Positions 16,488 to 17,858 are shown, counted from the first letter of the stretch. The stretch: DNA of 19,394 nt from Acidobacteriota bacterium (GCA_040005235.1 JBDTZG010000082.1:1-19394); one strand, 5' to 3'. The notes: generated by a model not told the origin, from the sequence alone. A program made the numbers and translations.

Positions 16488-17858
16488 CTAGGGATTGTCG
16501 TGCGGATTTTCTTTTTCCTGCGCCGCCATCGCTTTGCGCAGGCTGAGCGGGCGCATGTCGACCCAGACCTCCTTGATGTAGGCGAGGCACTCCTTCTGGG
16601 TTCCGGTCTTGTCGACGCCCTTCCAGCCGTCGGGAATCTTCTCGCCCTCCGGCCAGATGGAGTACTGCTCTTCGCCGTTGATGACGACTTGAAAGCGCGG
16701 CGCCGACTCTGAAGTGTAGGTCCCGGCAGGCCCTAAGGGAGCGAAGTCGTAACCCGAGATCATGGTTCCCGGGGGCACGTCTTTGATCGAGAGAGCGACC
16801 TGGCCCAGGTGTGAAATGTGAACCATGGCTGAGACGGTGTCGAAATTCGTGACCTTCCCTTCGCCACCCAGCATCGGGGCATGCTGCCAACTGTAGACCT
16901 GTCCCGCCTGCGGGCGAAAACCCAGGTCGCGCAAGGCGAGCAGCGTACTGACGTGAAAGACAGTCGGAAGGTGGATCGCGATCCCTTCGAGCGACTCGGC
17001 CTCAGTGTCGACAAACTCTTCGTACCTCGCCGAGCCCGTATCGAGCCAGTGGATGTGGCCGTCGGGCGTTTGAAGGAAAAGGTCCCCGAAGACGGTGACA
17101 CGGAAGAGTTTCGCGTCCGGCCCGACGAGCCATCGCCAATCCGCGAGCGCCGCCTCCCGCTGCTCGGCCGGGAGCTCGACAAACAGCTCGGCCCAGGAAG
17201 CGCGGAGAGCCTCCGGACCGCCCTTTTCTGCAACGAACCGCGCCCTGGCTTCTCGGCTCACGTTGGCGAGAACGAGATTGGTTTCATACAACAGGGGCTG
17301 GGCGCCAAAGAGATTGGGATCGAATCCGGACTGCCAGGGAAACAAGGCTTCTTTATCGGGCCAGACCACTTGCAGGACCGGGAAGTCGTCCGTCTGGTAA
17401 AAAGCCATCGCCGTGCCCACGAACTCTACGTACCAAGAGCTGTTGACCTTGCGCAAAGCGCCGGAGAATTTGCCGAAGAGACCATCGTAGGTTTTTCCGG
17501 CTGCGAAGGTCTCGCCGGCCGCGATGCGCTTCGCCATCGCGGCCACACGGCCGGACACCTCCAGCGGATCTCCCGGTGCGAAAAGCAGAAGCTCAGGATG
17601 GTGGTAGCTCTTCCATAACCCGATGGTAAAGACAAACCCCGGTGATGAACCCTCGCCACGCACCGCCACCATGTGCCAGCCAACGCGTTTGACGTCACGT
17701 TTGGCTCGCTCGACCGCCTCATTGCCCAGGGACTCGATTCCGCTCCGTTTCGGATCGGCCGAAGCCTTACTTTCGGAGCCTGCCCGGCCTCGAAGAGCAA
17801 AGGCTGCCACGATCCCCGCGATCACCACGAGGACGACAAGGATGGATATTCGGGTCAT
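16488..17858 (-). CDS. Fusion protein: TM/signal + DUF4262 + Tdi1/DUF1851-like + MbtH-like domain (456 aa)
   Basis: aa 55-190 GWHMVAV..FVFTIGL..HPEL..QVVWPD..FPW; aa 222-367 [30 protein letters not shown]; aa 388-444 [41 protein letters not shown]. Confidence 0.88.

Follow-up and report, generated by a model that had tools for sequence, protein, structure and literature searches.

An MbtH-like domain joined to a hydrophobic N-terminus, a SuFu-like domain and a Tdi1-like domain in a protein of an Acidobacteriota bacterium

Gene and domain organization

A stretch of 19,394 nucleotides from an Acidobacteriota bacterium (GCA_040005235.1, JBDTZG010000082.1:1-19394), hereafter called the window, was analyzed for one gene, the product of which carries a domain of the MbtH family, the small partners of nonribosomal peptide synthetases (NRPSs), behind a hydrophobic N-terminus and two further domains. 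The gene was a single unbroken open reading frame (ORF) encoding 456 amino acids (aa) and a stop codon. The G+C content was 0.74 at the third (GC3) and 0.45 at the second codon position (GC2), which is typical of coding sequence. The original prediction, made before any database search, had described one ORF with a hydrophobic N-terminus and three separate modules, and this description was borne out by the ORF list, the translation, the Pfam matches and the conservation of the segment at aa 4–22. Table 1 summarizes the features of the gene and of its surroundings.

Table 1. Features of the target gene and of neighbouring genes, with positions counted from the first nucleotide of the window
Feature	Position	Strand	Basis or remark
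Whole gene	16488–17858	−	ORF list and translation; full-length homologues at 41–71% identity
Sigma-70-like promoter match (TTGACT, 16-nucleotide spacer, CAGAAT)	17943–17970	−	Consensus scan
Shine-Dalgarno-like GGAG	17865–17868	−	Read from the sequence; 6 nucleotides upstream of the ATG at 17858
Hydrophobic segment, aa 4–22, probable membrane anchor	17793–17849	−	Kyte-Doolittle maximum 3.26
DUF4262, SuFu-like fold, aa 48–190	17289–17717	−	Pfam; structure match of the domain model
Tdi1-like domain, aa 218–357	16788–17207	−	Structure match to both halves of solved Tdi1 proteins
Flexible linker, aa 358–384	16707–16787	−	pLDDT below 50 for aa 370–384; length and sequence vary in the alignment
MbtH-like domain, aa 385–450	16509–16706	−	Pfam, fold, modelled docking
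DUF900 alpha/beta hydrolase	15156–16469	+	N-terminal ~200 aa without assignment; 18 nucleotides between the two stop codons
2090-aa bacterial alpha-2-macroglobulin	8757–15029	−	Adjoins the CHAT gene
1103-aa protein with a C-terminal CHAT (caspase-like) domain	5387–8698	−	

Three Pfam domains were found in the protein, namely, DUF4262, T6SS_Tdi1_C (T6SS, type VI secretion system; a borderline match) and MbtH. No NCBIfam family was matched by the protein, PADLOC gave no match for it or for seven neighbours, and the ESM Atlas returned no usable match for it. The full-length model reached a predicted local distance difference test (pLDDT) score of 86.5 and a predicted template modelling (pTM) score of 0.72, and low confidence was confined to aa 24–35 and 370–384. 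In the order of the chain, the parts were the hydrophobic segment, a domain with the Suppressor of Fused (SuFu) fold, a Tdi1-like domain, a linker and the MbtH-like domain.

A later start codon, which would leave the protein without the hydrophobic segment, was considered and is disfavoured by the GGAG motif and by the conservation of that segment. The sigma-70-like site, a consensus match only (one found, 0.3 expected), lay within the 104-nucleotide gap separating the upstream cyclophilin gene from the target gene.

The C-terminal MbtH-like domain

MbtH-like proteins carry the signature NxExQxSxWP ... PxGW ... WxDxRP, with three conserved tryptophans. This signature was intact in the target (N394, E396, Q398, S400, W402, P403, P409, G411, W412, W432, D434, R436 and P437), and the motifs quoted in the original prediction were all present in the translation (N394..W402-P403, P409-x-G-W412 and W432-x-D-M-R-P-x-S-L). 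Pfam placed the MbtH match at aa 387–430 (E 6.1e-17; 61.2 bits, cut-off 27), and the score in the genome search was 65 bits. When compared with solved structures, aa 385–445 matched PA2412 of Pseudomonas aeruginosa (2pst) with a Z-score of 10.4, a root mean square deviation (rmsd) of 1.2 Å over 61 of 61 residues and 62% identity, and ten more MbtH chains matched the MbtH part at Z 7.5–9.3. Moreover, this part was among the best-conserved stretches of the full-length homologues. Across 13 such homologues, 72 columns were invariant and 20 of these lay within it, including those of N394, E396, Q398, S400, W402, P403, W412, W432, D434, R436 and P437.

A complex of aa 378–456 with an adenylation domain encoded in the same genome (C132:78288-79760) was modelled, and the ipSAE interface score, taken as the median over three runs, was 0.86, whereas no higher score than 0.00 was obtained with any of three controls. 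Of 157 solved complexes, 116 came up to the mark used for this score, as did 2 of 215 mismatched pairs. The three runs shared at least 91% of their contacts, the pLDDT of the partner was at least 83, and the modelled contacts with the adenylation domain were made through S400, W402 and W412. By its features, the MbtH module looks as if it could serve adenylation domains in full.

The fused MbtH domain was 58% identical to the stand-alone MbtH of the host. In a tree built with a quick method, in which few forks were resolved, no fused MbtH fell inside the supported clade that held 17 of the 18 stand-alone MbtHs of the order together with two Thermoanaerobaculia sequences, the latter hinting weakly at an acidobacterial host. 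Going by this identity and this tree, the fused domain did not arise by recent copying of the resident one. The two groups also differed at the residue after the first asparagine, a position outside the search pattern: histidine stood there in 94 of 101 stand-alone MbtHs and in none of the 30 fused ones.

MbtH domains fused to adenylation enzymes are known from SlgN1 and ObiF1. The C-terminal domain of the target shares the fold and the signature of the MbtH-like proteins (PF03621), and its modelled docking face is the same, formed by the tryptophans of SxWP and PxGW. However, it is neither a stand-alone protein of about 70 aa nor fused to an adenylation domain. Instead, it ends a 456-aa protein with a probable membrane anchor, after two domains of immunity type. 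It also lay outside any NRPS cluster in the 14 loci considered, and it represents a second copy beside a canonical one, without the histidine after the first asparagine. A membrane-held MbtH was not unique to this family, since P0034, an unrelated protein of 544 aa, was a major facilitator superfamily (MFS) transporter with a C-terminal MbtH domain. Another fusion outside NRPSs was P0187 (289 aa), in which precomputed Pfam matches placed a cold-shock domain together with MbtH.

The DUF4262 and Tdi1-like domains

DUF4262 was matched by Pfam at aa 55–180 (E 1.6e-33, 116.1 bits against a cut-off of 28). The domain (aa 40–215) was modelled on its own from 72 sequences with a pLDDT of 94.8, and the model was compared with solved structures. 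It matched the bacterial SUFU homologue 3k5j at Z 8.8 (rmsd 4.1 Å, 122 residues aligned) and human and fly Suppressor of Fused at Z 6.3–6.9 (rmsd 4.1–4.7 Å, 128–133 aligned), and the best fold other than SUFU reached a Z-score of 4.0 or less. Foldseek gave SUFU in 15 of the 16 top rows listed, with a probability of up to 0.96. At the sequence level, Pfam SUFU (PF05076) did not match the target protein at E up to 1, hhalign of DUF4262 with one SUFU-domain protein gave a probability of 0.2% and hence no match, and the DUF4262 profile retrieved only chance-level rows from the PDB sequences, without a link to SUFU. Judging by the domain model, DUF4262 is SuFu-like by fold, without a link to SUFU in sequence. 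Compared with the SuFu-type immunity domains of polymorphic toxin systems, it shares the fold of the SuFu N-domain but differs in having no match to Pfam SUFU, to the PDB sequences or, in a profile comparison, to one SUFU-domain protein.

The Shedu nuclease was considered as a lead for DUF4262 and rejected: the Shedu domain is probably DUF4263, the adjacent Pfam number, and the label DUF4262 attached to it in print was presumably a slip. The label occurs in the Shedu preprint (bioRxiv 10.1101/2023.08.10.552762), where it names the hallmark nuclease domain. One further paper naming DUF4262 only lists a DUF4262 protein within a polysaccharide cluster.

In the central part of the protein, the Pfam match to T6SS_Tdi1_C (aa 315–353, E 5.6e-6) scored 26.6 bits, slightly below the cut-off of 27.4, and a six-frame genome search gave 29.7 bits at the target gene. 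The GAD-like Pfam model did not match the protein at E up to 1. When the structure of aa 218–357 was compared, it matched Bacteroidales Tdi1 (8g0k_B) at Z 13.1 (rmsd 2.2 Å, 132 residues aligned), Bacteroidales Tdi2 (8fzz_B) at Z 12.5 (rmsd 2.5 Å, 135 aligned) and the Agrobacterium Tdi1 Atu4351 (6itw) at Z 11.4 (rmsd 2.8 Å, 133 aligned), with 14–20% identity to these proteins. Thus, the weak Tdi1_C call was confirmed by the alignment to three solved Tdi1 and Tdi2 structures. Moreover, since nearly the entire solved chain was covered (residues 11–190 of 193 in 8g0k_B), the central part corresponds to a whole Tdi1-like domain and extends beyond the C-terminal half. Together with the Pfam match to DUF4262, this agrees with the naming of the middle domains as DUF4262 and Tdi1/DUF1851 in the original prediction. 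PF08906 was present in the precomputed Pfam matches of 21 of the first 33 proteins from the protein-cluster search described below, and the 33-sequence alignment had 12 invariant columns, every one of them in the Tdi1-like domain.

Tdi1 and Tdi2 are T6SS immunity proteins against Tde (Ntox15) DNases, and Tdi1 immunity proteins reportedly comprise a GAD-like and a DUF1851 part (Ma and colleagues, 2014). The central domain of the target shares their whole-domain fold and has a borderline Tdi1_C match; it differs in its low identity, in a Pfam score at the cut-off and in the lack of a GAD-like match. In addition, it is embedded in a multi-domain protein with a probable anchor, and no Tde/Ntox15 gene was found nearby or in the host genome, in which Ntox15 had no match at 100% completeness.

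Distribution and modularity of the family

Among 5.8 billion protein clusters, 35 matches were found. DUF4262 and MbtH stood together in one protein in 20 of them, seven had DUF4262 and the central domain without MbtH, and six had MbtH with the anchor and the central domain but lacked DUF4262. The remaining two were unrelated MbtH fusions, namely, the MFS transporter and an acyltransferase. The matches came from several sources, and one was located on a 5.2-Mb contig. Overall, about 25 independent database proteins had the architecture of the target. In addition, two Logan contigs of 21,451 and 7,279 bases (one per run) spanned positions 16400–17950 with no differences; both runs belong to one study, and either may be the source of this DNA.

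An exhaustive HMMER search with aa 1–380 matched 2652 cluster representatives when E values up to 1e-3 were accepted, 30 of which reached 1e-30, and most of the matches were stand-alone DUF4262 proteins of about 150–200 aa. Among 62 longer relatives scanned for domain partners, DUF4262 occurred in tandem in three, with a full Tdi1_C match (53.7 bits) in one, with DUF4265 in one and with a weak Imm33 match in two (22.1 and 24.9 bits, cut-off 25.4). In other proteins, the Tdi1-like domain followed DUF6882 or a multi-pass membrane domain, or preceded MbtH. A search for longer fused forms returned only NRPS-MbtH proteins, which matched through the MbtH part alone, and a scan of genome contigs with a profile dominated by MbtH gave ordinary MbtH loci only, none of them fused. 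A region-restricted search, which is not a survey, gave 23 candidates.

Across the order, 35 of 300 species genomes had any match, and the SuFu-Tdi1 fusion was present in 18 of them. The gene carried in-frame stops in three of those 18 (two TGA in G652:C11:1765647-1766690, one TAG in G676:C3:433765-434754 and one TAG in G629:C75:78851-79849), and the truncated copy of G676 adjoined a DDE transposase gene. Within the genus, two of seven other species had a match, and 13 of 401 genomes did so in a phylum-wide sample. The in-frame stops fit a dispensable accessory gene, and the family as a whole is modular, patchy and accessory.

In the limited collection of literature searched, no description of this architecture was found, in line with the original prediction, in which the architecture was not recognized. 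Nor was anything found in that collection that joins MbtH with immunity proteins and polymorphic toxins.

N-terminal segment and topology

In the full-length model, aa 2–28 formed a helix, and the hydrophobic N-terminus was conserved in homologues of all three architectures. The segment was counted among family members with a Tdi1-like domain, using a Kyte-Doolittle threshold set by us and excluding fragments; the sequences are related and not independent. Among complete members bearing MbtH, 33 of 34 had an N-terminal hydrophobic segment (30 strong, three weaker, one none), compared with nine of about 26 complete members without MbtH. In other words, MbtH comes almost only with the anchor.

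The charges around the segment were compared by counting lysine and arginine before it and in the 15 residues after it. More of these residues followed the segment than preceded it in 36 of 44 anchored members; the numbers were equal in three and smaller in five. In the target, one such residue preceded the segment and four followed it. Its N-terminus (M-T-R) carried one positive charge, and the net charge was +1 before and +2 after the segment. According to the positive-inside rule, the excess of lysine and arginine after the segment would place the domains in the cytoplasm, and the relatives without an anchor must be cytoplasmic. On these grounds, the soluble part of the target most likely faces the cytoplasm.

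Genomic context

The host genome (6.2 Mb, 100% complete) contained 99 matches to condensation domains and two MbtH domains, the fused one and a stand-alone one. The stand-alone gene lay in an operon with genes for a type II thioesterase and a phosphopantetheinyl transferase (PPTase) on a contig without a condensation-domain match of its own, and this operon looks like a shared support cassette for NRPSs.

Fifteen related loci were fetched, two of which (L128 and L133) were dropped since no intact target gene was picked, and 13 were examined. No neighbour was conserved across the window and these 13 loci, and no toxin gene was adjacent to the target gene in any of them. Among 105 neighbour proteins, one was an acyl-CoA-ligase-like AMP-binding enzyme, which stood beside a copy without MbtH. 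CHAT genes were found near the target homologue in two of the 13 loci as well as in the window, once fused to SIR2, AAA and TPR domains. Other occasional neighbours were SIR2 (two loci), a STAND-like NTPase (one) and a SUFU-domain gene (one), and helix-turn-helix and transposase genes also occurred sporadically.

In the window itself, the cyclophilin gene and a Reg_prop gene lay upstream on the same strand. Downstream, the DUF900 hydrolase gene was convergent with the target gene, followed by the genes for the alpha-2-macroglobulin and the CHAT protein (Table 1). The DUF900 hydrolase was considered as a cognate toxin and rejected; since no DUF900 gene occurred in the 13 related loci, it is probably unrelated to the target. 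Next to the CHAT gene, the stretch at 3400–5400 had a G+C content of 0.50–0.53, compared with 0.61–0.72 elsewhere in the window. It held two minus-strand ORFs (3412–4311 and 4321–5373) without a Pfam or PADLOC match, and it may have been acquired laterally.

Discussion

The protein may be read as a single-pass membrane protein, the soluble part of which most likely lies in the cytoplasm and consists of three protein-binding modules: a SuFu-like domain, a complete Tdi1-like domain and a canonical C-terminal MbtH-like domain. The MbtH module would grip the adenylation domain of one or more NRPSs of the host, or a free-standing adenylating enzyme, and the gripped enzyme would thereby be kept at the membrane's inner face. 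One or more other proteins would be the partners of the SuFu-like and Tdi1-like modules. Such an arrangement could serve, for example, to place assembly lines near exporters. We tentatively favour this membrane scaffold, as a possibility short of probable, because the MbtH domain is canonical and docks in the models, the genome is rich in NRPSs, MbtH is associated with the anchor, lysine and arginine are enriched after the segment, P0034 offers a second, independent case of a membrane-held MbtH, and the fused MbtH was not recently copied from the resident one.

Several observations weigh against a scaffold for adenylating enzymes. The complex score perhaps reflects only likeness to the MbtH/adenylation-domain complexes in the structure database; since such complexes have been solved, the modelled docking indicates likeness and not binding. 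The first interface tryptophan was lost in three of 30 tabulated fused MbtH domains (leucine in P0030 and P0061, valine in P0076), and the divergent fused MbtHs P0038 and P0161, which stand outside the tabulation, read phenylalanine and serine there. A canonical MbtH was already at hand in the host (C73:5388-5540, in the operon described above), and a stand-alone MbtH was present in 20 of 20 related genomes tested, with or without the fusion, seven of them having the fused form as well. The context pointed in the same direction: no NRPS domain occurred in the ten largest window ORFs, and condensation or carrier domains were found in none of the 105 neighbour proteins of the 13 related loci. 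Many relatives lacked the MbtH module altogether, and therefore the chassis does not have an NRPS-specific core function. Finally, four or five anchored members had N-termini that resembled cleavable signal peptides with acidic mature ends, which would put the protein outside the cytoplasm; P0010, P0011, P0033 and P0049 are of this kind, and four of the five members with fewer lysines and arginines after the segment look like this.

The main rival, in itself rather unlikely, is an orphan polyimmunity protein in which the SuFu-like and Tdi1-like modules each neutralise an incoming interbacterial toxin and MbtH has been co-opted as a third toxin binder that plays no part in making peptides. A polyimmunity protein unites several immunity domains in one polypeptide, as defined by Zhang et al. 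2012 (PMC3482391), and going by the modelled folds the SuFu-like and Tdi1-like chassis looks like one in that sense: the target shares with such proteins two structurally unrelated domains of immunity type in one chain, by fold. According to that paper, SuFu is among the commonest polyimmunity domains and is fused to Imm33 and others, and among the 62 relatives examined here DUF4262 occurred in tandem or with Tdi1_C, DUF4265 and weak Imm33 matches. The folds match immunity types (Z 11.4–13.1 against three solved T6SS proteins for the Tdi1-like domain, Z 8.8 for the SuFu-like domain). The patchy spread in the order, genus and phylum, the three copies with in-frame stops, one of them beside a transposase gene, and the varying neighbourhoods, in which CHAT, SIR2, STAND-like NTPase and SUFU-domain genes appear now and then, would also suit an immunity gene.

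However, neither a toxin gene nor a polyimmunity locus surrounded the target gene in the window or the 13 loci, and the complete genome held no Ntox15 to be neutralised. No N-terminal anchor is noted for the solved Tdi1 proteins, and the available text of Zhang et al. 2012 (PMC3482391) mentions fusions to transmembrane helices for Imm34 only; it does not mention MbtH, nor is MbtH among the fusion partners named there. A function in toxin binding would leave unexplained why a full signature for binding adenylation domains is kept under strong constraint. Moreover, the 12 invariant columns in the Tdi1-like domain are unlike what may be expected of fast-evolving immunity interfaces.

It is very unlikely that the protein is exported by a Sec signal, cleaved or not, so that its domains bind periplasm-acting toxins or proteins of the cell envelope in the periplasm. 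The four signal-like members named above would suit export: their N-termini are short and positively charged, their hydrophobic cores are weaker and have small residues towards the end, and the 15 residues that follow carry a net charge of −4 to −5. The single positive charge in the M-T-R of the target is also compatible with it, the net charge alone being indecisive (+1 before, +2 after). On the other side stand the excess of lysine and arginine after the segment in most anchored members, the approximately 16 complete relatives without any hydrophobic N-terminus, and a hydrophobic stretch of 17–25 residues, which is closer to a membrane span than to the core of a signal peptide. In addition, both MbtH-like and Tdi1 proteins function in the cytoplasm. 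As for an artefact, either a chimeric assembly or a gene call that runs unrelated genes together, the window does come from a draft assembly of 140 contigs, but nothing was found in its support, and the recurrence of DUF4262 with MbtH in 20 of the 35 matches from several sources, the 5.2-Mb contig included, the two Logan contigs without differences and a model confident across the domains make it practically negligible.

The original prediction had set two alternatives side by side without commitment, and this interpretation was partly supported. A poly-immunity-like nature was supported at the level of folds and by the DUF4262 fusions, but no toxin gene was adjacent in the loci examined. A tether for an NRPS was supported only indirectly, by the MbtH signature and fold, the modelled docking, the anchored forms and the NRPS-rich genome, and no NRPS gene was adjacent in the same loci; the absence of an NRPS from the window had itself been stated correctly.

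To our knowledge, MbtH-like proteins have been described solely as small partners of adenylation domains in the cytoplasm, either free or fused to NRPSs. It is improbable, less so than export yet more so than the orphan immunity role above, that in this family the MbtH fold has been recruited outside peptide biosynthesis as a membrane immunity or decoy module beside the SuFu-like and Tdi1-like domains. If this were true, one would expect interbacterial toxins, or proteins of other invaders, that bear or act against a surface like the one by which adenylation domains bind MbtH. The assembly lines of NRPSs would then be targets in bacterial conflict, and MbtH would be a new family of immunity domains.

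The fold assignments bear on two poorly understood Pfam entries, DUF4262 being SuFu-like in the model and the Tdi1_C region belonging to a complete Tdi1-like domain. The membrane positioning of giant peptide synthetases is an open question, as in the case of the pyoverdine 'siderosomes'. If the protein is a membrane scaffold, the family, which welds a canonical MbtH to a probable anchor and two immunity-type domains, would offer a testable handle on the positioning of NRPSs at the membrane; alternatively, it would give access to a novel role of this fold in conflict between bacteria. As the host order comprises soil bacteria with very large NRPS complements, a second, anchored MbtH may matter for the heterologous expression of their gene clusters.

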